A stretch of DNA of 64,000 nt from Candidatus Zixiibacteriota bacterium (GTDB lineage Bacteria; Zixibacteria; MSB-5A5; GN15; JAAZOE01): the NCBI GenBank assembly GCA_043819555.1, contig JBDREQ010000020.1, forward strand, positions 22,690-86,689. Direction: 5' to 3'. The notes under the pieces were generated by a model that did not search any database, was not told the DNA's origin, and saw only the letters and a list, made by a program, of their open reading frames with translations. A program made the translations under genes and the position numbers. Positions 1,718-63,260 of this stretch are shown piece by piece. Positions within the stretch are counted from its first letter, which is position 1. Each line of letters starts with the position of its first letter.

Positions 1718-2493
1718 TCCGGCTCTCCCAGAAGTTCATGGATTTTTAGGAATGGATCTTTACTGGTAATTATGCTTTCGCCGATCAGGACGGCATCGAC
1801 GCCATATTCCTGAACTCTGCGCATATCTTCCCGGGTTTTAATTCCGCTTTCGCTGATGCAAACGGCATCGCATGGGATTGCAGGATGAATTTTCTCAACG
1901 GTTTTCAAATTAACCTGAAAAGTTTTGAGATTGCGATTGTTAATTCCAATAATCTCAGGCCTTAAACGCCAGGTTCGGGCGAGTTCCTCTCTGGAATGAA
2001 TTTCAATAATGGTTTCCAGTCCGATTTTATGCGCCAGAGCATGCAAATCATAAAGTTGATCATCGCTCAGAATAGCCGCAATGAGAAGAATGGCGTCGGC
2101 GCCTATTGCGCGGCTTTCCCAGATTTGGCATTCCTCGATTATAAAATCTTTTCTCAAAATTGGAAGAGATGTATTTTCTCTGGCTTTTTTTAAATCATCG
2201 ATGGATCCTGAGAAGAACTGTTCTTCGGTTACAACCGATACCGCCGCCGCTCCAGCATCTTGATAAAGCCTGACAAACCGAGCCACATCCATATTATTGT
2301 TCAATATACCGCGCGACGGCGACCTTCTTTTGATCTCTGCTATCAGAGCGAGTTTTTTGTTTCTTGTTAGATTTATTCGAAAGTTTCTGACTGGATGCAT
2401 ATCCCGAACCGATTTGGCCATGTCATCAATAGCTGAATGATTACTCATTTGATCCAGCAAAATTCTCTTATGTTTGATGATTTGATTAAGCAT
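1714..2493 (-). CDS. trpC: Indole-3-glycerol phosphate synthase
   Basis: LIAEIKRRSPSRG, LRKDFII, GINNRNL and ISESGI motifs. Confidence 0.97.
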   Translation of the reverse strand: MLNQIIKHKRILLDQMSNHSAIDDMAKSVRDMHPVRNFRINLTRNKKLALIAEIKRRSPSRGILNNNMDVARFVRLYQDAGAAAVSVVTEEQFFSGSIDDLKKARENTSLPILRKDFIIEECQIWESRAIGADAILLIAAILSDDQLYDLHALAHKIGLETIIEIHSREELARTWRLRPEIIGINNRNLKTFQVNLKTVEKIHPAIPCDAVCISESGIKTREDMRRVQEYGVDAVLIGESIITSKDPFLKIHELLGEPE

Positions 2494-3508
2494 TGGGGAA
2501 ACTCCTGCTGAAATCTATAAATTCATTTAGTTTCAGTAAGGCTCGGCCGGAATCGATGCATTCTTCGGCCATCCTGATTCCCTCTTTTAAATTGGCTGAT
2601 TTTCCGGCGATGGTCAGGGCTGCCGCCGTGTTAAGCAGGATCGTATCCCGTCGAGGACCTTTTTCGCCTTTCAGGATTTTTAATGTAATAACCGCGTTTT
2701 TTCTTGCGTCGCCTCCGGCCAGTTCTTTTATATTACAAGGGGCAAATCCCAGGGATTGAGGATTCAATTGAAAATGCTGACATGTACCATTATGAGTCAT
2801 GCTGACTTCATTGAGTCCGGCCGTTGTCAATTCATCTATATGGCACCGGCTATAAACGACCATGGCGGACTTTATCCCGATGGCGCGAGCGACATGAACA
2901 ATTTTATCGGTATAGACGCCGTCAAAAACTCCGATTAATTGATGTGTCGCAAAAGCCGGATTGGTTAGAGGGCCCAATAAGTTGAAAACTGTCCTGAATC
3001 CGAGTTCCTTTCTTATGGGTACGACTGCCTTCATTGCCGGGTGCAGCGACGGAGCAAATAAAAACCCGATTCCGATCTCATCTATACTCTGGCCGGATTG
3101 TTCGGGGCTTAAGTCAAGATTGGCTCCCAATTCCTGAAGCAGGTCAGCGCTTCCACATTGGCTGGAAATGGAGCGGTTGCCATGTTTGCCTACGGGAATT
3201 CCGCAGGCGGCGATAACAAAAGATGTCGTCGTGGAAATATTAAACGTCCCTGCCCCATCACCGCCGGTACCGCAATTGTCAAATATCATCTCCTGGTTAT
3301 GAGGAATGCGCAGTGCTCTCTCTCGCATCACTTGCGCAGCCCCCAGGATTTCATCAACGGTTTCTCCTTTGCATCTGAGAGCCGTTAGAAAAGCGGCCGT
3401 ATGAGTTGGAGAAACCTCGCCTGACATTATCTGATATATTACCTCACGACTTTCTTCAGCCGATAGATCCTGATTATCAATGATTTTTTTAATCGCTTCC
3501 TTAATCAT
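2486..3508 (-). CDS. trpD: Anthranilate phosphoribosyltransferase
   Basis: CGTGGDG, TFNIST, KHGNRS, GSADLL and RTVFNLLGPLTNP motifs. Confidence 0.97.
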   Translation of the reverse strand: MIKEAIKKIIDNQDLSAEESREVIYQIMSGEVSPTHTAAFLTALRCKGETVDEILGAAQVMRERALRIPHNQEMIFDNCGTGGDGAGTFNISTTTSFVIAACGIPVGKHGNRSISSQCGSADLLQELGANLDLSPEQSGQSIDEIGIGFLFAPSLHPAMKAVVPIRKELGFRTVFNLLGPLTNPAFATHQLIGVFDGVYTDKIVHVARAIGIKSAMVVYSRCHIDELTTAGLNEVSMTHNGTCQHFQLNPQSLGFAPCNIKELAGGDARKNAVITLKILKGEKGPRRDTILLNTAAALTIAGKSANLKEGIRMAEECIDSGRALLKLNEFIDFSRSFPNA

Positions 3509-3510
3509 AA

Positions 3511-4077
3511 TTACCTCGCGCTGAGAAAATTCGATAACAGATTTTTGCCATAAGGAGTCAGAATTGATTCCGGATGAAACTGTACCCCCACGACCGGTTT
3601 ATCTGAAAGGCGAAGAGCCATAATCTCGCCATCGTCGGTGTGCGCGGTGATATGCAGACAATCAGGAAGCGACTCCTCCCGGACTATCAATGAATGATAC
3701 CGGGTTGCCTCAAAGGGGGAAGGGACACCCAGAAATAAGCCATCACCGGTATGATAAACACTGGATATTTTACCATGCATCAGTATTTCGGCGTTATCAA
3801 TATTCCCGCCAAATGCTTCGGCAAGACATTGATGCCCCAGGCAGACTCCAAGAATTGGCATTTTATCTGAGAAATATTTAATCATATCTACAGAGATGCC
3901 GGCGTCCCGGGGTCGGCCCGGCCCCGGGGAAATCACTAAATGCGTCGGATTGAGATTGATTGCCTGTTCAATAGTAATTTCATTATTGCGGGCAACGTGG
4001 CATTCCCCGCCTAATTCCCCGAAATATTGCACCAGGTTGTAGGTGAATGAATCGTAATTATCGATAATCAAAATCAT
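3511..4077 (-). CDS. trpG: Anthranilate synthase component II (class I glutamine amidotransferase)
   Basis: IDNYDSFTYNL, SPGPG, GVCLGHQ and QFHPES motifs. Confidence 0.96.
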   Translation of the reverse strand: MILIIDNYDSFTYNLVQYFGELGGECHVARNNEITIEQAINLNPTHLVISPGPGRPRDAGISVDMIKYFSDKMPILGVCLGHQCLAEAFGGNIDNAEILMHGKISSVYHTGDGLFLGVPSPFEATRYHSLIVREESLPDCLHITAHTDDGEIMALRLSDKPVVGVQFHPESILTPYGKNLLSNFLSAR

Positions 4078-5507
4078 CAGAGTCCACCTTCTGCGTTCTC
4101 AATCGCCTTTTGGAGGGCCGCGATTTTGTTTTTGGTTTCCAGATACTCCATCTCCGGAATTGAATCGGCAACAATTCCGGCTCCAGCCTGTAGGTAGTAT
4201 TTTTTAACCTTCATTAGAATTGTCCTGATATTGATGCACCAATCCATATCGCCCGACAAGCTGAAATATCCAACCGCGCCGGCATATGGACCCCGCCGGG
4301 TTGTTTCAATATTCTCGATTAATTCCATCGATTTGATCTTGGGAGCTCCGGTCACGGTTCCGGCGGGGAAGGCGGCCTTAAAGAGATCGAATTGATCCAT
4401 ATCCTTTCGCAATTTCCCGGTTATATTGGAGGTCATGTGCATAACATGCGAATATCGTTCGATCGTCATGAATTCATTGACATTGACCGAACCGACGCGG
4501 CAGCATCGTCCCAAATCATTTCTCCCCAGATCAACCAGCATGACATGCTCAGCTCGTTCTTTGGCATCATTGAGTAATTCCTCAGCCATTTTATTATCCT
4601 CCTCGGCAGTATGTCCTCGAGGACGGGTACCGGCGATAGGACGCACCGTCGCTATGCCATTTTCCAGCCTGACCAGCGCCTCCGGAGAAGAACCGATTAG
4701 TTTGACATCATCAAAATCCAAAAAGTACATATAGGGCGAGGGATTGAGCATTCGAAGGGCTCGATAAATCATAAACGGATCGGCATCAGTCTCGCCTTCC
4801 AATCTTTGAGAAATGACCTGCTGGTAAACATCCCCGGCTATGATATGTCTCTGTACTTCGCTAACTGCCCGGCAAAAATCATCTTGCGCAAAATTGGAAG
4901 CAGGTTTTTTACCCATAGCAATATTTCCATTTCCGGATGGATTAGCCAGAGGAGAATGCAGTGCATCTATAACGCTGTCCAGTTTTTCCGCGGCGGCGGA
5001 TTCATTATTGCCTGCTGCCAGACTCAGAACTTTTATAGTTCTCTGAATATGATCAAAAACCAGAAGAGTATCTATCAAATACAGCATCGCCGGAGGTATA
5101 TGAAGGGTATCGCGGGATAAATTCGGAATGTTTTCAAAAAAGCGAATGAAATCATAGCTGATAAATCCAACCGCTCCTCCGAGCAGAGGGGGGCGGTTGT
5201 CAATTTCTTCCACGGAAGAACGATTGAGAATAGAACGAAGGCAACTTAGGGGAGCGTCAGGTTCTATATATGATAAGGATTCACTATTTACCCCGTTTTG
5301 AAGAGACAAGTGATTGTCATAAACAGTAATTTTTGATTCCGGTTTCATTCCGATAAAGGAGTAACGGCCCAGTCTTGTTGCGCCCTCAACGCTCTCCAAA
5401 AGAATTTTCGCTCCAATGGTTTGAAGTTTTAGAAACGCCGAGACCGGTGTTTCCAAATCAGCCGGCATTTCTCGCGATAAAATCTTCAATTTCGTATGTT
5501 CCACCAT
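4077..5507 (-). CDS. trpE: Anthranilate synthase component I
   Basis: LLES, NPSPYM, PIAGTRPRG, KERAEHVMLVDLGRND and AGAGIVADS motifs. Start placed at ATG 5507 (AAGGA upstream), because the track's 5528 start lies at the edge of the attenuator terminator's U-tract. Confidence 0.95.
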   Translation of the reverse strand: MVEHTKLKILSREMPADLETPVSAFLKLQTIGAKILLESVEGATRLGRYSFIGMKPESKITVYDNHLSLQNGVNSESLSYIEPDAPLSCLRSILNRSSVEEIDNRPPLLGGAVGFISYDFIRFFENIPNLSRDTLHIPPAMLYLIDTLLVFDHIQRTIKVLSLAAGNNESAAAEKLDSVIDALHSPLANPSGNGNIAMGKKPASNFAQDDFCRAVSEVQRHIIAGDVYQQVISQRLEGETDADPFMIYRALRMLNPSPYMYFLDFDDVKLIGSSPEALVRLENGIATVRPIAGTRPRGHTAEEDNKMAEELLNDAKERAEHVMLVDLGRNDLGRCCRVGSVNVNEFMTIERYSHVMHMTSNITGKLRKDMDQFDLFKAAFPAGTVTGAPKIKSMELIENIETTRRGPYAGAVGYFSLSGDMDWCINIRTILMKVKKYYLQAGAGIVADSIPEMEYLETKNKIAALQKAIENAEGGL

Positions 5508-5526
5508 TTTATATAAGTCCTTGCAC

Positions 5527-5561
5527 AAAAAAAGCCCGCTATCATCGTTTGATAGCGGGCT
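5527..5561 (-). terminator. Attenuator terminator 2 (trpE-proximal)
   Basis: Minus strand AGCCCGCTATCA-AACGA-TGATAGCGGGCT followed by TTTTTT: a 12-bp perfect stem plus U-tract. Confidence 0.92.
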
Positions 5562-5585
5562 GGAATGCGTTTTTAAAATTAGCTA

Positions 5586-5711
5586 TTAGCTTCCGCTATC
5601 AGGCAAAGTGGCATACCACCACCAGTTAAGACTATAGGAATAGTTAAAGCTGAAGTTGTCTAAGTTGCTTAGTTCGAAGATCCCATAATTTGTGTTAATC
5701 AGATTTTTCAT
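5586..5711 (-). CDS. trpL: trp leader peptide 2 (41 aa)
   Basis: MKNLINTNYGIFELSNLDNFSFNYSYSLNWWWYATLPDSGS*. TGG TGG TGG at 5616-5624. Its segment TGATAGCGG (5593-5601) is complementary to the 5' arm of terminator 2. Confidence 0.85.
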   Translation of the reverse strand: MKNLINTNYGIFELSNLDNFSFNYSYSLNWWWYATLPDSGS

Positions 5712-5721
5712 TTTTCTTTCC

Positions 5722-5758
5722 AAAAAAGAAAAACCCACTATCATTATGATAGTGGGCT
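5722..5758 (-). terminator. Attenuator terminator 1 (promoter-proximal)
   Basis: Minus strand AGCCCACTATCA-TAA-TGATAGTGGGTT followed by TTTCTTTTTT. Confidence 0.9.
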
Positions 5759-5803
5759 CGCCTTGCTTCTTTTGGGGGGGAATCTAAAATAACAACGAAT
5801 CCA

Positions 5804-5896
5804 CTATCTTCCGGTGGTATAATACCACCACCAATAGCGACCGATGTAGTAATCAACTAAAGCTGAACATTTTACGGCCTGATTCATTGTCCTCAT
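5804..5896 (-). CDS. trpL: trp leader peptide 1 (30 aa; alternative ATG at 5887)
   Basis: AAGGAG RBS; MRTMNQAVKCSALVDYYIGRYWWWYYTTGR*. TGG x3 at 5825-5833. GATAGTGG (5801-5808) is complementary to the 5' arm of terminator 1. Confidence 0.88.
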   Translation of the reverse strand: MRTMNQAVKCSALVDYYIGRYWWWYYTTGR

Positions 5897-5911
5897 AAAC
5901 TCCTTGTACTC

Positions 5912-5939
5912 AGTATATCAAAGATCAAGAATTTGTCAA
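5912..5939 (-). promoter_or_regulatory. Sigma70-type promoter of the trp operon
   Basis: TTGACA (5939-5934), 16-nt spacer, TATACT (5917-5912) with an extended -10 TG; lies immediately upstream of leader 1. Confidence 0.75.
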
Positions 5940-6045
5940 GGGAAATTTTGTAACTTATTGAAATGCAACAATTAATTTTTACGGATAATTATAGTCTCGT
6001 TTAGGATAGTACAATCTTTAGATACCGCGTAGCAGGCGGGCAATT

Positions 6046-6861
6046 TTATTTTTCCGCTTCCCCTTCTTCACATGGAAGCACTTCTTCGTAAATTCTTGCT
6101 CCGATTGTACGGCAAATTACCGGATGTTGTATTGATGCCAATTCGCCAAACTTTACTGTTATTTCCAGAGCAATTGTTTCTTGCTCAAAAAGGCTATTGA
6201 CTAACCACGTGAGATACATTTCAACATAATCTTCACGGACAGTACTATCATTTAATGCCTCTATGGCAATGTCAACAGAAGCAATCCAAGTTGCCTTTAA
6301 TTCCGGACTTTCATTGTTTTTAAAATCTCCCAGTATTCGCGCGGCTGCAAAACGAATAGCCCAAAATCTGTGGTTCAGGGCTGGTAGTAAAAACCTGACC
6401 AATCTCTCATCGCCTTTTTGAGCCAATACACTGGCCGCCTCCAATGCAGCCTGGGCAGTATCTGCGATGAGAGATTCCCAATTAATATCAATTGCTTCCC
6501 ACTTTCGAAGCCAGTTTATCCCATCCTCATGATTAAATTGCGATAATAGTTTGGCGGTCTCAAGCTGAACCTTGATTGAAGATGATTCCAAAAAAGGCGG
6601 AATCATTTTCAAAAATGAGGAATCATTATTCTCTTGCAGCCATATTAGAGTATAGGCCTGCGCCCATTCATTTCCGCTGTTTAATGCTCTCGTTAGACTT
6701 TCTGTTGTAGGCTCATATCCAAAACTCAGCAATATATCTTCAGTTGTCGGCAATATTCCTTCATCAGCATACGCGGGAACTGAAAAACATATCATACTCC
6801 AGACAAACGCAGATATCCAAATAAGCGATTTGAAATCTTTCGCGGAAGTCAGAATATTCAT
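6046..6861 (-). CDS. Secreted HEAT-repeat-like protein; candidate immunity or partner protein
   Basis: Signal peptide ending VPAYA. HEAT-like units (ESSSIKVQLETAKLLSQF, NHRFWAIRFAAARILGDF). Start placed at ATG 6861 with AGGA overlapping the upstream stop codon. Confidence 0.6.
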   Translation of the reverse strand: MNILTSAKDFKSLIWISAFVWSMICFSVPAYADEGILPTTEDILLSFGYEPTTESLTRALNSGNEWAQAYTLIWLQENNDSSFLKMIPPFLESSSIKVQLETAKLLSQFNHEDGINWLRKWEAIDINWESLIADTAQAALEAASVLAQKGDERLVRFLLPALNHRFWAIRFAAARILGDFKNNESPELKATWIASVDIAIEALNDSTVREDYVEMYLTWLVNSLFEQETIALEITVKFGELASIQHPVICRTIGARIYEEVLPCEEGEAEK

Positions 6862-6872
6862 ATTAACTAATC

Positions 6873-7337
6873 CTAACAACCGGGCCACTTTGTTTTAAGT
6901 TCGGCAATCAAAGCATCATGCACTTCTTTCTGCTTAGTATAACATTTTGAAGTATTTGGTTGAGTTTCATCGTTGCTCGGTTTAGTATGCGAAGGTCGGT
7001 TTTTCTTAGCTTCTGTAATGGCGTCTTTAAGGAAAGCATCGGCAGCAGCCTTCATTTTGGCCACTGCTTCTTCGGGAGTATCAACTGCCGGTATAACGCA
7101 TGCCGTTTGGAGAGCTTCAATTTTTGGTTCAGCCAGTTCCCACTGCGCATCTAAAACAGTTTTCCATTCTTTTTGGTGCTGGCCTTCGTGCGCTTGTGTC
7201 GCGGCAAGCGACGTATATGTTGATTTGGGGGCACGACCCGGAGGGGGAGCGCCTTTGAATTCCAAATCCTTTACGATCTTTTTGCAATCCGCTTCACTCG
7301 TTACATCGTCCTTACTTTTAATGTCCGTTCGGCCTGT
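6873..7337 (-). CDS. Frameshift-separated C-terminal HExxH domain of the upstream dockerin gene
   Basis: The frame stays open from 7337 (TGRTDIKSKDDVTSEADCKKIVKDLEFKG...AHEGQH...WPGC*), upstream of the track's TTG at 7265, and overlaps the end of the upstream ORF in the -1 frame. Confidence 0.65.
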   Translation of the reverse strand, partial: TGRTDIKSKDDVTSEADCKKIVKDLEFKGAPPPGRAPKSTYTSLAATQAHEGQHQKEWKTVLDAQWELAEPKIEALQTACVIPAVDTPEEAVAKMKAAADAFLKDAITEAKKNRPSHTKPSNDETQPNTSKCYTKQKEVHDALIAELKTKWPGC

Positions 7338-9007
7338 TTACAGACAGAAATCGAATACTTCGCCCTACATTCATCCACCCGCATTTCCCAGTTATCTCCA
7401 TCCAGGCAGCAGGCCTTATATTTGGCGCTTGGCATGTATGCTTCCCAGAGTCCGAAATCGCCACCACAATTCGGAGTTTTGCTGGGAGTTTCCTCATATG
7501 TTACCGCAACATCCGGATTTGGATCACATGCCGGGGCATTGCAGCATACGGCTGAATCAATCAAACAGGGCGCGTCGCCACCCTTAAAAACGAAATTGAT
7601 AACGTACACGGCATCACCGACATTGACAGATCCATCATTATTGGCGTCCCCAGCATACATCGGCTCCGGAGGAGGGCCGCCTTTAAACACATGATTGATA
7701 ACATAGACGGCATCACCGACATTTGTTGAGCCATCTCTATTGGCATCTCCGCAAACAATCGCCTCTGTAAGATTTATTGAGATTCCGCAAATTTCACCTT
7801 CTCCAAGAATGTCCCGCACCTCAATCATAATTTCATGCACCCCGGTGTCGGAAGGCGTTGACTGCCATTCATAAACGCCGGTTGCGGGATCCAGGATTCC
7901 TGGTCCATATAATGTATAAGTAAGTTCATCGCACAATTCGGGCCCAAAAGCATTGAATATGTACTGGATGTACGAACCTGCTTCAGCCTCAATATCTTCG
8001 TAACAGGCATTATCAAACACCGGAGCATAGCTATATATAATCACTTCGGTTGTGAACACATCCGAACAACCGGTGGGATCACAGACCTGATATACAACAC
8101 TGTGAATCCCGATATCCTCTGGCCCCGGTTCCCACTCCCATTCACCGGTGGCAGTATTCATTGTACCCGGTCCTTCAATCAGCTCAAATGTGATTTCATC
8201 TCCCTCAGCATCTTCGCCAAAGAAATCGTAATACATATAACTACAGATATAGCGATTAAGTGTTTCTGGATGATTGGTAACATAAGGGAGAGTATTCGGA
8301 TCGGGGCAGCAAACGTTGGCGAATATATGGAAATTAATATCTATACCCCAATCATCTGCAATAAAACCCCAGATGCTATTCCAATATTCCATTGAACGCC
8401 ACTGCCCGCATGATCCATCGTCTGACATTATTGAAATCGTGTCATTTATCTGATCAATGACCGTATATCCAACATAGAAATCGCCGGTTACGGTAATCGG
8501 TTCGGTAGGAAAAACAGTTGTAAGATAAGGGAAAAAATAAATTTCGGATCCGGGAACATGAATAATTTCTATTAGTTCTCCCGGAAATCCGTATTCATCG
8601 CTATCCCAAATTAATACATTAATCCCATTTCCTGAAACATTAACGCTGCCAGCTTCCCAAAATGCGAAACTAACTGACGTCAATGTGCAAGCATCAAGCG
8701 GCGTAAATCGCATATTAAAGAAATCGTCTCCATAAGCATCAGGAATAGGCCAATAATAATACTCGTTGCAAGTATAATCCAGCCACTCACAATAGGATTT
8801 ATCGCCGACCGCTTGTGATTTTTCCGGCAATGAAATATCCGCCCCCGACAATATCTTCTCTTTGTCGATTAATCGAGGGGTTTTTCCCTGAATAGTATTC
8901 TCTGTCGCGACATTTTCTGAACTGACATCCAAGGCCAGTAACAGCATAAATATGCCGCAGCTTAGAACCGTTATTGTGAAAATAAAAGCACTGACTTTCC
9001 TTTGCAT
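7301..9007 (-). CDS. Secreted or membrane-anchored protein with two Ig/cadherin-like repeats and an internal dockerin; probably frameshifted
   Basis: GGAGG RBS before ATG 9007; hydrophobic N-terminus; repeats GPGTMNTATGEWEWEP and GPGILDPATGVYEWQS; dockerin at 7565-7753. Confidence 0.8.
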   Translation of the reverse strand: MQRKVSAFIFTITVLSCGIFMLLLALDVSSENVATENTIQGKTPRLIDKEKILSGADISLPEKSQAVGDKSYCEWLDYTCNEYYYWPIPDAYGDDFFNMRFTPLDACTLTSVSFAFWEAGSVNVSGNGINVLIWDSDEYGFPGELIEIIHVPGSEIYFFPYLTTVFPTEPITVTGDFYVGYTVIDQINDTISIMSDDGSCGQWRSMEYWNSIWGFIADDWGIDINFHIFANVCCPDPNTLPYVTNHPETLNRYICSYMYYDFFGEDAEGDEITFELIEGPGTMNTATGEWEWEPGPEDIGIHSVVYQVCDPTGCSDVFTTEVIIYSYAPVFDNACYEDIEAEAGSYIQYIFNAFGPELCDELTYTLYGPGILDPATGVYEWQSTPSDTGVHEIMIEVRDILGEGEICGISINLTEAIVCGDANRDGSTNVGDAVYVINHVFKGGPPPEPMYAGDANNDGSVNVGDAVYVINFVFKGGDAPCLIDSAVCCNAPACDPNPDVAVTYEETPSKTPNCGGDFGLWEAYMPSAKYKACCLDGDNWEMRVDECRAKYSISVCKQAERTLKVRTM

Positions 9008-9321
9008 ATAACCTCCCCGCAACATATGCCAATCCATCGCGATAAAACACCCCGCATTCGCGAATGAATTAAGATTTATATAACTTGTTCACTGGGTAAT
9101 TCTCCCGCCCCGGGATGAATTACATTTGCCAATGCAAAATCAGATATAGGATTTAATTTTTATGAAATTTGAATCGCAAATTCCACCTTCCATCTTCGAT
9201 AAACATATATATTTTGCGCCCAAAAGTCAATTGCTTTAACCCTCACAAATAGTCAATTGACAATTTGACCAAATAGTTGTTTCTTGGATTTGCTCGCTGA
9301 ATTATAAACTAAGGTGTAATT

Positions 9322-26185: not shown

Positions 26186-28945
26186 ATGAAATCATGGAGA
26201 CATTTTATTGGTGGCGCCGTTTGTATTCTGACGATCATTGCGGGGATTGACTGCATGGCTCAGGACCCGGGGCTTCCTGATACCGTTAAAATCGAGGGGG
26301 GACCGCTGATTGTCGGAAGATCAATCCCTCTCGCATTTACTGTTGTAAATGATGAATTCGTCCGGGGGAATACATCCGGCCTATTAATTTTCTCAAATGA
26401 TGGCGGTTGCGCCAGCTATGATTCGGTCGTTTATATTAATCGCCAAAATGACCCATCTGTTATGGATTTTAGGTTGGTCAGATCGCGAAAGGAAACCTGT
26501 ATTGGAAATGATAGCCTTCATGTCGTCAATGGCACCTGGTTCGGAAATCCCCTGCCTCCCGGAAGTGATCCAATTCTCCTTCTTTATTTCACGGGTATCA
26601 ACACCGGTCATATAACCATTGATTCTTCCTATTTTCCGCCCGGGGCTCCGTTTGCGTTGCAACGGTGGGATTACATCAATGGCTATACGCCGCAATTTAC
26701 ATCAACCACTATTGAGATTATCGAAGGAACATTGCCTCCGGAAATTGCAGTTCCCGATGGTTATCTCTCTACAACCGCCGGAGAAAGCATTAGTTTTGAA
26801 ATTGGAGGATATTCACCTGAAGATTTCCCAATCACTCTTGAACTGATTGGCATGAAAGGTTTCGACGATGACGCAAGGTTACCGGAAAATTTACCAACTT
26901 TGAGCGAAGAGAATCCGGCGCTCTTCGAATGGTATGTTACTTCCAATGACATTGGCATCTGGACCGCCTTATTTAGAGTCTGTGATACCGAGGGATTATG
27001 CGTTGTCGACAGCGTCGTTATTCAGGTTGTGGGAAGCGCACCCTATTTAATTACCATGAACATACAAGAAATAATGGGTGTTTGTAATGCCAACAGTTTA
27101 GCCCACGGTAATTTCGATGAAGACGACAATCCAGAATTATTTATCAGCGGAACCGGGAGTAATTTAACTCCTACCATGGAGCTGTACGATTTTAATTCTT
27201 CGGAAGGTTGGCAACGAGTATTTGCACATAAAGACCTGGAACCGAAATTTGGCTCACAAGCGGGTTATTTTAATGGCGACAGTAATTTGGATGTTTTCTT
27301 AATGGGATTTGAAAACGGGCCATACCGAGTTCTTACCGCTGAAGGAGATGGCGCTAATTCTTTTGCGCTTTCAGGATTTGAAAATGATGGCCATGTAACG
27401 CGCAATATTATCAGTGGAGAATTTACGGGTGATAATTATATCGATGTCGCCTCAACATGGCACGACGGTGTTCGGATTTATGCCGGCAATAATCAGGGTG
27501 ATTTTTCATATATCTCCATAATTCCCACTTCCGACTCTGCGGTTACTGTAAACTCCGCCGATTTTAATGGTGATGGAATCGATGATTTGGCTATTGGTAC
27601 TAAAAGCGGTATAAAAATATATCTTGGCGACGGGACTGCTGGATTTAATGAAGTGGAATTTCATCCACAAGTGTATGCCACTCTGGATGTCGAGATTACC
27701 AACAACGGCAGTGATTTCAATAACGATAATATTTACGATCTGTGTATCTCCACGCCATCTGTTGGAGGCGAAAGAAGTGAAATTGTTATTTATCTTGGCA
27801 ATGGGGATGGTACGTTCAGCCAGCATGTGATTCGCGATATCACGGGACAAGTTTTTGGCAATTGCGTTGGCGATTTTAATAACGATAGTCGACTCGATAT
27901 TGCGTTCGTCAATGGCTCCCAAAAATATGTCGGTATTTTATTTGGCGAAGGGGATGCCACATTTTCAAATGAGATGAGATATGAAGTTAAAAATCATATC
28001 CCCAGATATATTGATTGTTTTGATGCTGATCTGGATGGCGATCTCGATATAATAGTCGCATCTATTACCGTGGACCAGGGAAATTCGCTTTATTATCTGG
28101 AAAATCAGACAAATCCAGATGGTTACTTGCCCCAGTCACTAACATTGACCGCATTTGATAACGCCACCATTGAACTCAATTCTGCGGACGGGAAAGTATT
28201 CAATCGGATAAAAAACGTGATGCCTTCGGGAGATTATTATCGCCGCAATGTCGATCTTGATGATGATATGGATGATTTTATCTCCATGGGCGTCGTCGAA
28301 AATGAGGCTTATTCGCTCAAAGCGTTCCCTAAATCAGATAAATCAATAGGAGAGACATTCTCACTGGAATTTACTATTAATGGGCGGCTCTACCGCCTGG
28401 CCAAAGATATGCCAATGCGGTCCGAAGGTTATCAGTTTACGTTTTACGCAGGCGATGATTTTCCCGCTATGCCTCGGCCGGGGAAAATTACGCATATAAA
28501 TCCGCCAACCTTTATGTGGCAGGGGGAAGGACCGTTTCATTTTCAATTAGCCCGCGACTATGATTTCAATAACGTACTTTATGATTTGACAATTTACGGA
28601 AACGAATATACGACCGACGGCCTGTTGGACGTGATTGACACAACTACATATTATTGGCGGATTAAACCGGTGGGCGAGCCCGAATACGATTGCCTGTATG
28701 TTATCAGTTTATACCTCAATCCGGGCAATCATTGCGGCGACGCCAATGATGATGGAATTGTAAACATCGGCGATGCGGTATTTCTCATCAACCATATATT
28801 CAAAGGCGGACAGGCGCCATATCCTTTAGAAATAGGCGATGCCAATTGCGATGGTAACACAAATGTAGGAGACGCTGTTTATATCATTAATGTTGTATTC
28901 AAGGGCGGACCGGGTATATGTGACAATTGTGATATAGCATGGTAG
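26186..28945 (+). CDS. Secreted protein: cohesin-like N-terminus, Ig-like domain, FG-GAP/VCBS repeats and C-terminal dockerin
   Basis: GGAGG RBS and signal peptide; about 7 DFNGDG..D-type repeats with YLG.G; dockerin at 28733-28921. Confidence 0.85.
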   Translation: MKSWRHFIGGAVCILTIIAGIDCMAQDPGLPDTVKIEGGPLIVGRSIPLAFTVVNDEFVRGNTSGLLIFSNDGGCASYDSVVYINRQNDPSVMDFRLVRSRKETCIGNDSLHVVNGTWFGNPLPPGSDPILLLYFTGINTGHITIDSSYFPPGAPFALQRWDYINGYTPQFTSTTIEIIEGTLPPEIAVPDGYLSTTAGESISFEIGGYSPEDFPITLELIGMKGFDDDARLPENLPTLSEENPALFEWYVTSNDIGIWTALFRVCDTEGLCVVDSVVIQVVGSAPYLITMNIQEIMGVCNANSLAHGNFDEDDNPELFISGTGSNLTPTMELYDFNSSEGWQRVFAHKDLEPKFGSQAGYFNGDSNLDVFLMGFENGPYRVLTAEGDGANSFALSGFENDGHVTRNIISGEFTGDNYIDVASTWHDGVRIYAGNNQGDFSYISIIPTSDSAVTVNSADFNGDGIDDLAIGTKSGIKIYLGDGTAGFNEVEFHPQVYATLDVEITNNGSDFNNDNIYDLCISTPSVGGERSEIVIYLGNGDGTFSQHVIRDITGQVFGNCVGDFNNDSRLDIAFVNGSQKYVGILFGEGDATFSNEMRYEVKNHIPRYIDCFDADLDGDLDIIVASITVDQGNSLYYLENQTNPDGYLPQSLTLTAFDNATIELNSADGKVFNRIKNVMPSGDYYRRNVDLDDDMDDFISMGVVENEAYSLKAFPKSDKSIGETFSLEFTINGRLYRLAKDMPMRSEGYQFTFYAGDDFPAMPRPGKITHINPPTFMWQGEGPFHFQLARDYDFNNVLYDLTIYGNEYTTDGLLDVIDTTTYYWRIKPVGEPEYDCLYVISLYLNPGNHCGDANDDGIVNIGDAVFLINHIFKGGQAPYPLEIGDANCDGNTNVGDAVYIINVVFKGGPGICDNCDIAW

Positions 28946-28995
28946 ATGGTCGCAATACGAGAATTTTTGGCATTAAGATTATATATAGAGATATT

Positions 28996-29030
28996 AGCTC
29001 CACAATTATGGTGAAATTGTGGAGCTTTTT
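28996..29030 (+). terminator. Intrinsic terminator
   Basis: AGCTCCACAATT-ATGGTGA-AATTGTGGAGCT followed by TTTT. Confidence 0.75.
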
Positions 29031-29165
29031 GTGAAGTATATTTCATTGAAGTAAATTCGAAAAAATGGGTAATAATACCGCTCTGTGGAAAACACATTTA
29101 ATTAAAATGGGTTGTAATACTTAAAAATATGATTTTCATAATGCAATCAAGTGTGGAGACATGAA

Positions 29166-59190: not shown

Positions 59191-60280
59191 CATGTTACAG
59201 GGACAGGAAAAAGTCCGCGACATACTTATAAAAACCGCCAACAACGGTCAATTGCCCAATAGTTATCTATTCTCGGGTCCCGAAGGAGTTGGCAAATGGG
59301 CTGCCGCACTGAGCCTGACAGCTTACCTCAATTGCAATAATCCAGCCTCGGATGATAGCTGCGGTACGTGCCCCTCCTGCAAACAAATTTCAAAATTACA
59401 ACATCCCAATTTATTTATTGCTATTCCGACACCGCCCTCAAAAACAGAAAAAGAAGAACTGGACAATTACTGGGAAATCCTGGGGAATAAAATCGCGGAA
59501 CCATATTCATTAATCACGGGCCAGAGGCAGATGTCAATCCCAGTGACAACGGTTCGCCAAATTAAAAAGAAACTGAATCAAAAAGCCGATTTGAGCGGCA
59601 AACGGGTGATTATAATTGATCAAATGGATCGTATGCTAACCTCTTCCGCCGATGCTCTCTTAAAACTTGTGGAAGAACCTCCGCGCGATACCTTGATTAT
59701 TATTACCAGTTCAAATCCTGAGAAACTCCTCGATACTATTGTATCGCGATGCAGAGTGATTTCGTTTCCCCGATTATCTGAAGATGTTATTTCCTCTTAT
59801 CTTATTGAAAAGGAAATTGCCGTCGATAAAAAGGCATATCTTCTCGCAAGGTTATCGCAGGGTTCTATCGGTCGCGCCCTGTATCTTTCAGAAGACGATA
59901 TTACTCAGGACAGGGAAATCGCCAAGCTAATTTTCAAAGGGATATTTCTTGGCCCGGCGATTAACGTGATCACCGAAGCGGGAGATTTACTCCCGTACCG
60001 GGATCGATTTCGCATTACACGAATTCTCGGTTTTTGGCAATCGTTATACAGGGATTTAATCCTGATTAAAAACGGATATGATAAAGAAAAACTAATCAAT
60101 ATCGATTATGCCGCCGAACTCGAACGCCTCGCGGCCAGGAATATAGCCGGTGAACCTTTACTAAAAATCCCATCTTATCTGGGCGAAGTTATACATGATA
60201 TCGAACTCAATGTTGATACCCAAACCGCGATCGCGGCTCTATTGATTGAAATTCAAAACCGATTGAATTTGCAGATTTAA
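59180..60280 (+). CDS. holB: DNA polymerase III delta' subunit
   Basis: YLFSGPEGVGK, C..SCG.C.SC....HP, ALLKLVEEPP and TIVSRC motifs. Confidence 0.92.
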   Translation: MNFSMLQGQEKVRDILIKTANNGQLPNSYLFSGPEGVGKWAAALSLTAYLNCNNPASDDSCGTCPSCKQISKLQHPNLFIAIPTPPSKTEKEELDNYWEILGNKIAEPYSLITGQRQMSIPVTTVRQIKKKLNQKADLSGKRVIIIDQMDRMLTSSADALLKLVEEPPRDTLIIITSSNPEKLLDTIVSRCRVISFPRLSEDVISSYLIEKEIAVDKKAYLLARLSQGSIGRALYLSEDDITQDREIAKLIFKGIFLGPAINVITEAGDLLPYRDRFRITRILGFWQSLYRDLILIKNGYDKEKLINIDYAAELERLAARNIAGEPLLKIPSYLGEVIHDIELNVDTQTAIAALLIEIQNRLNLQI

Positions 60281-60290
60281 TAAAATCATC

Positions 60291-60320
60291 AAAAAAACCC
60301 GCCGCTGAGAGCGGGTCTTT
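60291..60320. terminator. Bidirectional terminator between convergent genes
   Basis: AAAAAAACCCGC-CGCTGAGA-GCGGGTCTTT. Confidence 0.65.
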
Positions 60321-60326
60321 CGAAGA

Positions 60327-63260
60327 TTATTCACTACCAGTGTCAGGAGGTACGATTTGAACCGGAGGCGCAGTTGGAGTGGTCTGAGGCGGAGGGGCAA
60401 GTCGCTGCTGCTGCATCATGGACTGAACTCTTCGTAAGATATCATTTGCGACGGCATCATCATCATGATATTGTTTGTATTCCCTGGCTAATCTGACTAA
60501 ATCACCGGTACGCTCTTGTTCGAAATAAAGAGTAAGTAAAGCGCGGAAAGTCTGTTCTTTGTCACGGTTCATTTCCCAGGCGGTATTCAGATATTCCTCT
60601 GGTTTATCATTCTCTCCTAAAGTTAGATACATCATCCCCAAGTATTGATAGAAGAAAACATTGTCCGGATTCATATTAAGAAATCCATGCAAATACTGTT
60701 TCATTTCTATTTCAATTTCCATAGCCCGTAGAGTATCGCCTTTTTCTCGAGCACGTTGAGCTTGAGTCATGCGCGAACGCCAATAAGAAGGAATCGCTTC
60801 ACATATTTTTTCCAGTACTGAGTCGGCTTTTTCAATCTTGCCTTTTTCCATAAGATATGAATGATAATCGAGCATTTTTTCCGGGAAAGCCAATGAAATA
60901 CCGGATGTGTTTTCGCTCTGAGCAATTAATGTATCGCTGAGATTGTCATACTTATAGACTTCAAAAAACAGGCTGTCGGTAATATCTTCCCGATAAGCCA
61001 GATTGGTTTCATCGGCTGATAATGTCAAAATGATGCCGTCGCGGTATAATCTATCCATCAACTTCAGCGGTGTATTTCTGACTTCACCCGCCGCGGAAGT
61101 AAAGTGAATCGGATATTTCCAGCGATTAGTCAGAATAATATCTTCAAGCATTATTTGCGCGACCTTAAGAGTACTTTCTTCATAATATGTCGGCACTAAT
61201 AGCGCGCTCCGTTTCCGCACCCGGTCATAAAACGGCTTTTTAGGCCGTGTTATTTCCTGGCCATTGGGAGCGATATCTACTTCCCAAAGAATCTGGTCGT
61301 CTTTTAATGAAATCGGAACATCGGGAAGGATTCCGATATCAACCGGTTCAACTTCCTGGCCTTCAAGCATAATCTTTCCGTCTTTCCAGGGGATGGCGGC
61401 CGGGTCATAGCCGGCATTTATGGCCGAATGAGTATCAAGATGTTTCATCTGCCAGATATACCAGTCAGTATTAAGAAGCGAGAAATTTATAACCCTGACG
61501 TCTTTGCGAATACCGTAAATTTCCTGAATGCACCAGACAGGAAAAGTATCATTATCGCCGGAAGTAAACAAAATGGCGTTTTTCTCACATGAGTTCAAAA
61601 TATTCCAGGCATAATTATAAGCCATCCGATTTTTGGATCTGTCATTGTAAAAAAAGCTCGCCTGGGCCGGTATAATTGGCGTTAAAACCAAAACTAATGA
61701 GGCATAAACAGCCATCTTGCTCGTTCTCTCGCTCATTTCGGCAGTTGCTTTTCTAATCAACTCCATAATTCCGGCCATACCCAGCCCAATCGCAATGCCA
61801 AACAGAACAAACGCCGGAGTAAAGAAATAATATCTGTCGCGAACCTCCTGATATGCGTCACCGGTGTATTTATTATAATGCGTCCCGTCGGCAAAATTCA
61901 TGTACAAGACTAACCCCACCGAACCAACCAGTATAAGGGTGATAAAAATATACCCCCACTTAGGATATTTATAGGCCATCATTCCCAGGCCAAATATCCC
62001 AATCGCGAGAAACACCGGAAATAATTTTTCATTGGAATATTGCTCTTTGAAAAAACGCAGAAAACCCATCCGGGCGTGATCCCCAAACTGATTAGCCATT
62101 TCTCCCCGACGTACAAACATTCTTTCAGTCATAGAAGTGGAGCCGTACTGCTTGCGGTCGAGGAAATTAACGAACGTCCGAAAATCTCGGGAAGGGGTGT
62201 TTTCATCAATAATCGGGTGCGTATTCGAACGGATTGGTATATAAACATGAACCGAATAACCGATAATCGCGCATAATATTATTAAGAACGACAAACGCCA
62301 CAATTTGTCTCTTTTAACGAACCAGATGACAAAACTGATAATGAACCAGCCCAGAACCGAGAACATAAACGGATAAAAACCCATCATAATTGGCGAAATA
62401 GCCCCAAAAGCCAGGAAAATCGGCCAATTAACTTTATGCCTCATATATATCGCCAAACCGACAAATTGAAGCCCCGCTAAAACCAAAAATATTTTATATC
62501 TTGATGCCCCAATGCTTTCATTGAGAGTAGGGATTGATTTGTCGGCCAATAAAATAATCAGAATCAACTGAATGATAAAAAATCCGGAAATTAGAGCCCA
62601 GTCGATTTTTGTCGCCGTTCTTTTGAGGCCAAACATAATCGTCACAATCGGAACAATCAAAAATACCGTCAGGTGAATCCCCAAAGAAATGGTCGCCAGA
62701 AAAGCTGTCAAAAGAATAATCCTCTGCCCGGTATTATTAAAACGATGGTTATACCATTTAAGACTCAGCCATAACATAGCCAGCATTATAAGTATTGCCA
62801 TGCTGCGCGGTTCGGTTTCCACCGAATTGGTCCAGTTTGCTCGGCTAAACGCTACAAACAGTGAACCGATAAAACCCGAAGCATATGCAATAATTCGCCC
62901 GATTTTATAATTGTCGGAATTGATATACCAGCTCGAAACCAGGCGAACTATAATCAGGTAAGCGAATAGAGCCGAAAAAGTCGAGGACATGACCGACATC
63001 ATATTAATTCGGAAGGCTACGTCCGAAGCAATGGGCAACAGGTCAAAAAATCGCCCCACCAGCATAAACAGGGGCGTGCCCGGCGGATGCGGATTGCCCA
63101 TAATATGCGAACTGGCGATAAATTCACCGCAATCCCAATAACTCAAAGTTTGTGCCACTGTCAAACGATAGATTATAAATGCAATGATTGTGGCAATCAC
63201 CCCAATTACGGCGTTGATTTTATCGAATTTTTTCTCCTGACCAAACAACGATGGCTCCAC
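60327..63260 (-). CDS. DUF2723 family (TMEM260-like) membrane glycosyltransferase with C-terminal TPR-like region
   Basis: YWDCGEF, PHPPG.PL, R.QYG, EVRDRYYFF, GDNDTFP.W..QE and N.SLL.TDWYI motifs; GGAGG RBS with GTG start. Confidence 0.85.
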   Translation of the reverse strand: MEPSLFGQEKKFDKINAVIGVIATIIAFIIYRLTVAQTLSYWDCGEFIASSHIMGNPHPPGTPLFMLVGRFFDLLPIASDVAFRINMMSVMSSTFSALFAYLIIVRLVSSWYINSDNYKIGRIIAYASGFIGSLFVAFSRANWTNSVETEPRSMAILIMLAMLWLSLKWYNHRFNNTGQRIILLTAFLATISLGIHLTVFLIVPIVTIMFGLKRTATKIDWALISGFFIIQLILIILLADKSIPTLNESIGASRYKIFLVLAGLQFVGLAIYMRHKVNWPIFLAFGAISPIMMGFYPFMFSVLGWFIISFVIWFVKRDKLWRLSFLIILCAIIGYSVHVYIPIRSNTHPIIDENTPSRDFRTFVNFLDRKQYGSTSMTERMFVRRGEMANQFGDHARMGFLRFFKEQYSNEKLFPVFLAIGIFGLGMMAYKYPKWGYIFITLILVGSVGLVLYMNFADGTHYNKYTGDAYQEVRDRYYFFTPAFVLFGIAIGLGMAGIMELIRKATAEMSERTSKMAVYASLVLVLTPIIPAQASFFYNDRSKNRMAYNYAWNILNSCEKNAILFTSGDNDTFPVWCIQEIYGIRKDVRVINFSLLNTDWYIWQMKHLDTHSAINAGYDPAAIPWKDGKIMLEGQEVEPVDIGILPDVPISLKDDQILWEVDIAPNGQEITRPKKPFYDRVRKRSALLVPTYYEESTLKVAQIMLEDIILTNRWKYPIHFTSAAGEVRNTPLKLMDRLYRDGIILTLSADETNLAYREDITDSLFFEVYKYDNLSDTLIAQSENTSGISLAFPEKMLDYHSYLMEKGKIEKADSVLEKICEAIPSYWRSRMTQAQRAREKGDTLRAMEIEIEMKQYLHGFLNMNPDNVFFYQYLGMMYLTLGENDKPEEYLNTAWEMNRDKEQTFRALLTLYFEQERTGDLVRLAREYKQYHDDDAVANDILRRVQSMMQQQRLAPPPQTTPTAPPVQIVPPDTGSE

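Follow-up and report, generated by a model that had tools for sequence, protein, structure and literature searches.

Two complete Trp-codon attenuators lie in series ahead of trpE in a Candidatus Zixiibacteriota bacterium and probably act as two gates

Introduction

Why should a tryptophan (Trp) operon carry two leader-peptide attenuators in a row, and do both of them work? The question is raised by a window of 64,000 nucleotides (nt) from Candidatus Zixiibacteriota bacterium (the whole stretch of DNA analysed here; assembly GCA_043819555.1, contig JBDREQ010000020.1, positions 22,690 to 86,689 of the forward strand), in which a preliminary description had noticed two complete Trp-codon attenuators between a single promoter and trpE. 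Leader-peptide attenuation is a textbook mechanism that, to our knowledge, is always drawn with one gate. Tandem arrangements are known for T-boxes and riboswitches, and tandem T-boxes occur before Firmicutes trp operons. We report here that the layout is a real, well-conserved feature, and comparison with relatives together with folding models suggests that it most probably works as two classical Trp attenuators in series. All coordinates are window positions, and the whole trp leader region is read on the minus strand (5939-5505), as are the genes of the operon.

Results

One promoter and two complete units precede trpE

All parts named in the preliminary description are present, on the minus strand. 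The region starts with a sigma-70-type promoter (5912-5939) composed of TTGACA (5939-5934), a spacer of 16 nt and TATACT (5917-5912), the latter preceded by TG (TG-n-TATACT). This promoter scores 11 of 12 matches, 25 of its 28 positions are the same in G001 (a genome of the same genus as that of the window, G000), and no other promoter-like site was seen on the minus strand within 5300-6200, in agreement with the single promoter proposed for both units.

The first leader peptide open reading frame (ORF; 5804-5896) runs from an ATG at 5896, with AAGGAG at 5905-5900, to a TAG stop codon (5806-5804) that lies inside arm 2, the 5' arm of the antiterminator, and its product of 30 amino acids (aa) ends in ...GRYWWWYYTTGR. 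Although the frame of 30 aa is there as first described, the true start is probably the second ATG at 5887, giving 27 aa, because this ATG is kept in G001 and distances of 10-12 nt from AAGGAG to ATG occur in relatives. Three consecutive Trp codons (5825-5833, unchanged in G001) are preceded by region 1 of the unit, CGCTAT (5834-5839), which encodes Arg-Tyr, repeats part of arm 3 and, in RNA that is not being translated, is base-paired to arm 2. In many units of the 31-unit alignment described below, CGCTAT itself or a slightly altered form of it stands 5' of the Trp run. Arm 2 (GATAGTGG, 5801-5808) is found 16 nt past the Trp run. It is followed by intrinsic terminator 1 (5722-5759; stem 5759-5731), made of arm 3 (CCCACTATCA, 5756-5747), a loop, arm 4 (TGATAGTGGG, 5743-5734) and a T-tract (5733-5722). 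The 13-pair stem has a folding energy of -20.8 kcal/mol, and 32 of 36 terminator positions are the same in G001.

Only 10 nt, not the eleven initially counted, separate the last T of terminator 1 from the ATG of the second leader ORF (5586-5711; ATG 5711, stop 5588-5586). This ORF has a weak GGAAAG 5' of its ATG and encodes 41 aa ending in ...NWWWYATLPDSGS. Its three consecutive Trp codons (5616-5624) are likewise unchanged in G001. Arm 2 of this unit (TGATAGCGG, 5593-5601) codes for Asp-Ser-Gly and lies 14 nt past the Trp run, so that the two spacings originally given, 16 and 14 nt, are both borne out. Intrinsic terminator 2 (5527-5561; stem 5561-5533) consists of arm 3 (CCCGCTATCA, 5559-5550), a loop, arm 4 (TGATAGCGGG, 5544-5535) and a T-tract (5533-5527), with a 12-pair stem that includes 7 G-C pairs (-21.6 kcal/mol). 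The trpE gene (4077-5507, ATG 5507; TIGR00564, 547 bits vs a cut-off of 517.7) comes next, as the first gene of trpE-G-D-C-F-B.

In each unit, arm 2 repeats 8-9 nt from the 3' arm of that unit's own terminator, and the unit-specific variants are matched: GATAGTGG with CCCACTATC in unit 1 and GATAGCGG with CCCGCTATC in unit 2, the variant base of arm 2 being T with A/T in the former and C with G/C in the latter. The motif TGGTGGTGG occurs 27 times in 3.35 Mb (both strands). Two of these copies lie here, 209 nt apart, each of them in frame in a short ORF and 14-16 nt 5' of its own arm 2.

The position of the ribosome decides the predicted fold in both units

To mimic a ribosome, we masked each unit from its 5' end through the tenth nt after the A-site codon, and folded RNA that ended before the 3' arm of the terminator. 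In unit 1, each of the three Trp codons, when taken as the position of the ribosome, gave an antiterminator of -19.0 kcal/mol, while with the ribosome at the stop codon there was no antiterminator (0.0) and then a terminator of -24.4 kcal/mol. Unit 2 behaved in the same manner, with an antiterminator of -16.3 kcal/mol at a Trp codon and of -0.6 kcal/mol at the stop codon, and with a terminator of -21.6 kcal/mol. The ribosome-constrained folding suggested earlier as a check thus gives mutually exclusive structures in both units: the antiterminator with the ribosome at the Trp codons, the terminator alone with the ribosome at the stop codon. The fold of unit 1 has z = -7.4 against shuffled sequences. 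Arms 2 and 3 form 8 contiguous pairs in unit 1, matched by 4 of 200 shuffles, and 9 contiguous pairs in unit 2, matched by none of 200.

The local hairpins reported at each run of Trp codons also appear in the minimum-energy folds. In free unit 1 RNA, GCUAUU...GGUGGUA pairs with UACCACC...GAUAGU, that is, the Trp codons and CGCTAT pair with ACCACC and arm 2; this Trp-codon hairpin, a strong one as modelled, would correspond to the classical region 1:2 hairpin. We dropped the idea of a functional difference between the two units in the untranslated default state, as the prediction flips between G000 (0.08, 0.94) and G001 (0.87, 0.16). When the whole leader was folded under four ribosome scenarios, the arms of each unit stayed within their own unit, and cross-talk between the units is not predicted by these folds.

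Tandem units recur in three genera and two families

To survey relatives we took TrpE as the anchor; it was detected in 102 of 160 genomes from the order. Close orthologs (at least 47% identity over most of the protein) were present in 30 genomes, partial matches at contig starts in G119 and G091 having been left out. Three of the 30 (G146, G067 and G155) lacked usable upstream DNA, and G122 has no unit within 1191 nt, which left 26 assessable trpE loci with 31 units; the units of G031 and G135, whose terminators have no clean T-tract, were added by hand. This survey replaced a strict count of terminator motifs (17 of 160 genomes), which was too narrow and missed second units with imperfect stems.

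Tandem units were found in five of the 26 loci, namely in G000 and G001 (one genus), in G011 (a second genus of the same family) and in G030 and G141 (one genus of another family). The layout thus spans three genera and two families, and an equally placed promoter precedes leader 1 in all five cases. The other 21 loci have a single unit. A covariance model built from these units (R1) gave two full-length same-strand matches of 70-91 bits in exactly the five tandem loci (89.2 and 85.1 bits in G000) and one match elsewhere, a result that is partly by construction, those units being in the training set. Over an even sample of the class, R1 matched 59 of 151 genomes at an expectation value (E) of up to 0.001. 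Full-length matches at E up to 3e-10 occurred in 32 of the 151, from many families, with two side by side in G000 only; the six of them that we inspected are single units with a promoter directly 5' and trpE-trpG-trpD 3'. A two-arm pattern search of metagenomes returned at least 120 stretches, and none of 80 loci matched the unit model at E up to 1e-4; chance matches dominate this search, which is uninformative either way.

One single-unit relative deserves separate mention. G007 (L013:1000-1460) has an attenuator of the unit 1 type, with a leader reading ...SRYWWWYYTT... and a terminator whose loop is enlarged; the roughly 240 nt between it and trpE contain no recognisable second unit. We considered this spacer as a decayed unit 2, yet its alignment left no convincing remnant; it may be either the place of a lost unit 2 or an unrelated insert.

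Outside the close orthologs, six of 19 loci with a distant type of TrpE have one Trp unit 5' of the gene preceding trpE, and 13 have none within 1156-1311 nt. The distant-type unit is a single Trp-run leader with a terminator about 930-1020 nt 5' of trpE, before a gene of the DAP-epimerase fold (PF01678); such units are at L052:217-350, L055, L048, L049, L053, L056 and L014, a list made up of the six from the 19 sampled loci plus G006, which the model picked up. Runs of Tyr/Phe codons (for example YYYFYYY, YQYYYY and YWGYYYY) were seen on the same scaffold of arm 2 and terminator at L057:1045-1162 (G009), L058 (G018), L059 (G024), L060 (G046) and L061 (G027), preceding chorismate mutase type I, DAHP synthase and prephenate dehydrogenase. 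Judged by its sequence, this scaffold seems to be the Trp attenuator adapted to the reading of Tyr. No such version was found in G000, where a genome-wide scan for other leader-peptide attenuators made only the two trp units stand out; a Pro/Thr-rich leader candidate at 60,093-60,540 of the window turned out to be the C-terminus of a longer protein.

Pairing, spacing and selection are seen in both units

Among the 31 units, 23 have an arm 2 with at least 7 contiguous pairs to arm 3, compared with 3 of 31 equal-length control windows taken 5' of the Trp run, and in 22 of these 23 arm 2 starts 13-20 nt past the Trp run, approximately at the front edge of a stalled ribosome. In the 31-unit alignment, 94.9% of 372 terminator cells and 86.1% of 310 antiterminator cells are paired, against 29-52% and 30-57%, respectively, in slid registers, a comparison that favours the true registers because both structures were read off the same sequences. 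Compensatory changes are found at 8 of 12 terminator pairs and at 3 of 10 antiterminator pairs.

We also compared the parts of the leader within two genera (G000 vs G001, then G030 vs G141). The core from the Trp run to arm 2 is 92% and 95% identical in unit 1 and 87% and 97% identical in unit 2; terminator 1 is 89% and 91% identical, and terminator 2, 94% and 85%. For the N-terminal parts of the leaders the values are 67% and 86% (leader 1) and 60% and 67% (leader 2), and the peptides are poorly conserved outside the Trp run. Only one gap, of 3 nt, falls in a leader ORF, all gaps that are not a multiple of 3 lying outside the ORFs, and leader 2 is ungapped between G000 and G001. This pattern in the alignments shows purifying selection acting on both units.

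The two units are old

Within one genome, units 1 and 2 share 50-60% identity, which is no more than is seen between units from different families and makes the duplication an old one. Unit 1 of G000 and G001 clusters with the lone unit of G007 (support 86/93), while the units of G003 and G004 are 61-64% identical to unit 2 vs 52% to unit 1. Tandem, unit-1-type-only and unit-2-like-only states occur within one family, which fits a tandem ancestor in the family of G000 followed by reciprocal losses. The unit tree is poorly resolved at depth. Approximately unbiased (AU) tests rejected none of nine groupings (p 0.10-0.42), which were named after the tree had been seen and included all unit 1s as a clade, all unit 2s as a clade and within-genome sisters, so that one origin and several origins are both compatible with the data.

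Surroundings of the leader in the window

The remaining genes of the operon were assigned by NCBIfam model matches: trpG (3511-4077), trpD (2486-3508), trpC (1714-2493), trpF (1094-1717) and trpB (3-1115), the last extending past the window start. On the 5' side of the trp promoter, the minus strand carries a gene of 280 aa (6046-6888) with a weak partial match to NblB (HEAT-repeat-type; 25.5 bits vs a cut-off of 300) and a gene of 578 aa (7301-9037) with no NCBIfam match. A weak partial match to the unit model on the plus strand, at 28926-29034 (16.8 bits, E = 0.009, model positions 17-129), is most likely due to chance.

Discussion

How the two gates would work

We favour the reading that the trp leader is a series of two independent classical ribosome-mediated attenuators, both reading charged tRNA-Trp, and assign to it a probability of roughly 0.7. 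What the sequences and models show is the anatomy of the leader, folds that exclude each other, the spacing of the parts, covariation among relatives and purifying selection on both units; translation of leader 2, Trp-dependent termination at each site, the independence of the gates and a multiplicative output are what we infer from them. When Trp is scarce, the ribosome would stall at the three Trp codons and leave arm 2, located 14-16 nt further 3', free to pair with arm 3 before arm 4 is made; the terminator would then be blocked and RNA polymerase would read on. When Trp is plentiful, the ribosome would advance as far as the stop codon and so cover or pass arm 2; arm 3 would then pair with arm 4, and transcription would end at the T-tract. 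Only a polymerase that has passed both gates would reach trpE, and the overall read-through should therefore be about the product of the single-gate probabilities. Such a product would lower basal expression, widen the dynamic range and make the operon respond more steeply to Trp. Both this steepness and the multiplication of read-through are expectations drawn from the architecture and from the reported behaviour of synthetic tandem attenuators.

Are both gates in use?

Several results weigh against this reading. In both units the terminator is more stable at equilibrium than the antiterminator, and the model therefore requires folding to be kinetic and co-transcriptional, which is equally true of the classical attenuator. 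The advantage of the true registers over the slid ones is also helped, as mentioned above, by the way the structures were derived. The other points concern unit 2 and speak for an alternative in which one unit alone senses Trp, the other being a duplication relic that is inert or at most a leaky constitutive terminator. The fold of unit 2 is just modestly better than that of shuffled sequences (z = -2.2, with 5 of 200 shuffles equally good), and its region 1:2 hairpin is weak (5-8 pairs). The Shine-Dalgarno duplex of leader 2 is weak (-3.3 kcal/mol), the background median being -2.1 kcal/mol and the value for leader 1 -7.8 kcal/mol. Unit 2 of G011 may be weakened, with a broken Trp run (WSWW) and a contiguous arm 2 of 6 nt, for which 36 of 200 shuffles were as good. 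Furthermore, 21 of the 26 relatives manage with a single unit, so the second one is not essential and is dispensable in the lineage, and in G007 an attenuator of the unit 1 type is followed by no second unit at all. Decay of the second unit in relatives had been named at the outset as something that would speak against a double gate; those single-unit loci go part of the way in that direction, but they do not show decay in G000, where both units are conserved relative to G001.

It is this conservation that makes a single working unit unlikely in our opinion. In the two within-genus pairs the Trp run, arm 2 and terminator of both units are 85-97% identical, as opposed to 60-67% for the N-terminal part of leader 2, and the frame of leader 2 is open in all five tandem loci, with a sole gap of 3 nt. 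An open frame from ATG to the Trp run arose in only 191 of 5000 shuffles of the inter-unit sequence of G000, and in 283 and 359 of 5000 in two other tandem lineages. The strength of the Shine-Dalgarno sequence is a poor guide in this clade, because leader 1 of G030 and G141 has none (+0.4 to +0.6 kcal/mol). Moreover, if unit 2 had kept its terminator but were not translated, the operon would be shut off there, except where the antiterminator of that unit still functioned. An internal promoter would be another way around the first gate, yet none of the five tandem loci has a promoter-like site from terminator 1 up to the second Trp run. Two further observations may be added. In G011 (L004:1240-1300, about -345 from trpE) there is a weak promoter-like match (TTGACA, 17 nt, AAAAAT; 10 of 12) inside unit 1, just 5' of terminator 1, the only such site among the five loci. 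In the minimum-energy folds of the window's leader, the T-tract of terminator 1 pairs weakly (A-U, G-U) with the A-rich stretch that holds the ribosome-binding region of leader 2 (both within 5712-5733, minus strand), which could, if the model is right, slightly mask the start of leader 2 after read-through.

It might also be assumed that both units work and are not redundant: unit 1, with its Tyr-rich leader (DYY..RYWWWYY), might read Tyr in addition to Trp, or its terminated RNA of about 185 nt or its peptide might act in trans. Codon retuning does occur in the lineage, as the Tyr-codon runs on the same scaffold in five relatives indicate, and trans-acting attenuator products are on record for Sinorhizobium (the rnTrpL RNA and the peTrpL peptide; PMC6614838, PMC7298713). 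However, single units and unit 2 often have such flanking Tyr codons (YWWWY) as well, the Arg-Tyr codons are accounted for by the region 1 RNA arm CGCTAT, the leader peptides are little conserved beyond the Trp run, and no target in trans came to light, none having been looked for; we find this idea rather improbable. Less probable still is a coupling of the gates, in which a free arm of unit 1 would pair with arm 3 of unit 2 and gate 1 would preset gate 2. The arms do form one sequence family, and arm 4 of unit 1 could make 10 pairs, one of them G-U, with arm 3 of unit 2; nevertheless, in the whole-leader minimum-energy folds (the four ribosome scenarios) the latter arm is taken up by arm 2 of its own unit, and the arms of unit 1 remain engaged inside unit 1. 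When the second ribosome is placed at the stop codon, all that is left to arm 3 of unit 2 is a weak bulged contact just 5' of the terminator 1 stem. Finally, the genome is a draft of 79 contigs, and one could think of an assembly artefact or of a chance resemblance. We give this hardly any weight, as the two units are only 50-60% identical, hence no collapsed or duplicated assembly repeat, and as the layout recurs in five separate assemblies.

The tandem is not explained by a missing repressor

It had been proposed that the second attenuator may stand in place of a repressor. We found no TrpR (PF01371) in G000 (97% complete), in any of the four other tandem genomes or in any of five single-unit relatives, and no TRAP in G000. 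The whole clade seems to rely on attenuation. As TrpR is missing from tandem and single-unit genomes alike, its absence does not explain the tandem, and that part of the proposal finds no support. A wider reading would be that we are looking at a natural same-signal two-stage gate that multiplies read-through, is evolutionarily plastic and gives a repressor-free lineage the range of a classical repressor plus attenuator; we hold this joint claim with only slightly more belief than doubt. The plasticity that it includes would consist of the gain or loss of units and of the retuning of the scaffold from Trp to Tyr codons for the tyrosine branch, as comparison of the loci suggests.

Relation to known systems

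With the classical trpL-type attenuator (Rfam RF00513) the units share a short ORF with consecutive Trp codons directly before trpE, and a 2:3 antiterminator that excludes a 3:4 intrinsic terminator, the position of the ribosome deciding the predicted fold. They differ from it in that two complete units follow one another, with leaders of greater length (27-41 aa), an ORF in unit 2 that passes through arm 2, and no TrpR partner in G000. Unit 2 aligns to the RF00513 Trp_leader model over its full length (5526-5630, 24.4 bits, E = 0.019), below the gathering score of 41, and unit 1 gave no match to it. A neighbouring bacterial group has the Bacteroid-trp leader (RF01692), similarly a predicted Trp leader element before trp genes, which appears in Table 1 of Weinberg et al. 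2010 (PMC2864571). Up to an E of 10, the window region gave no match to this model, nor was there one in 151 genomes of the phylum, G000 included, while the control in Bacteroides thetaiotaomicron was matched.

Tandem T-boxes and riboswitches resemble the present leader in having two complete units of sensor and terminator per leader, both of which have to be passed. The same anatomy is found here, with two complete units and their own terminators on one predicted transcript from one promoter. The sensor, in turn, differs: T-boxes and riboswitches bind tRNA or a metabolite directly, whereas here it would be a translating ribosome. One such pair, for S-adenosylmethionine (SAM) and adenosylcobalamin (AdoCbl) ahead of Bacillus clausii metE, is described as two complete sensor-plus-terminator units in one leader (PMC3641672). 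The nearest case that we found is the Salmonella mgtCBR leader with its 'tandem attenuators' (Lee and Groisman 2012, PMC3641672), likewise a single leader in which the translation of two short ORFs governs read-through. In mgtCBR, however, the ORFs read different signals, ATP and proline, whereas here both units read Trp, on our interpretation, and each has its own intrinsic terminator; the authors of that study contrast their leader with one having two intrinsic terminators, and state that biosynthetic genes are normally under a single attenuator. Engineered tandem pT181 attenuators likewise place two terminator-forming attenuators in series before one gene and are reported to be more sensitive to the input than one (10.1101/003335); they sense an antisense RNA instead of translation. 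A second terminator in tandem is noted for some rimP leaders by Naville and Gautheret. We found no description of tandem same-signal leader-peptide attenuators in a literature coverage without most subscription journals, which within that coverage agrees with the initial impression that no case had been described, and the word 'tandem' does not occur in Seliverstov 2005 or Korolev 2016.

What the tandem would mean

Trp attenuation is extended firmly by these units into Ignavibacteria-type bacteria, with matches to the unit model in many families. If both gates work, a ribosome-based sensor can be stacked, in a manner that would tune basal level, dynamic range and steepness, and compact, protein-free, stackable parts of this kind are what designers of RNA circuits build by hand. 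The tandem should shut the trp genes off more tightly than one switch would. Close relatives with one unit of either type provide matched natural controls, and if the two-stage gate is true, the clade would be a natural test bed for how the copy number of attenuators sets gain and threshold.

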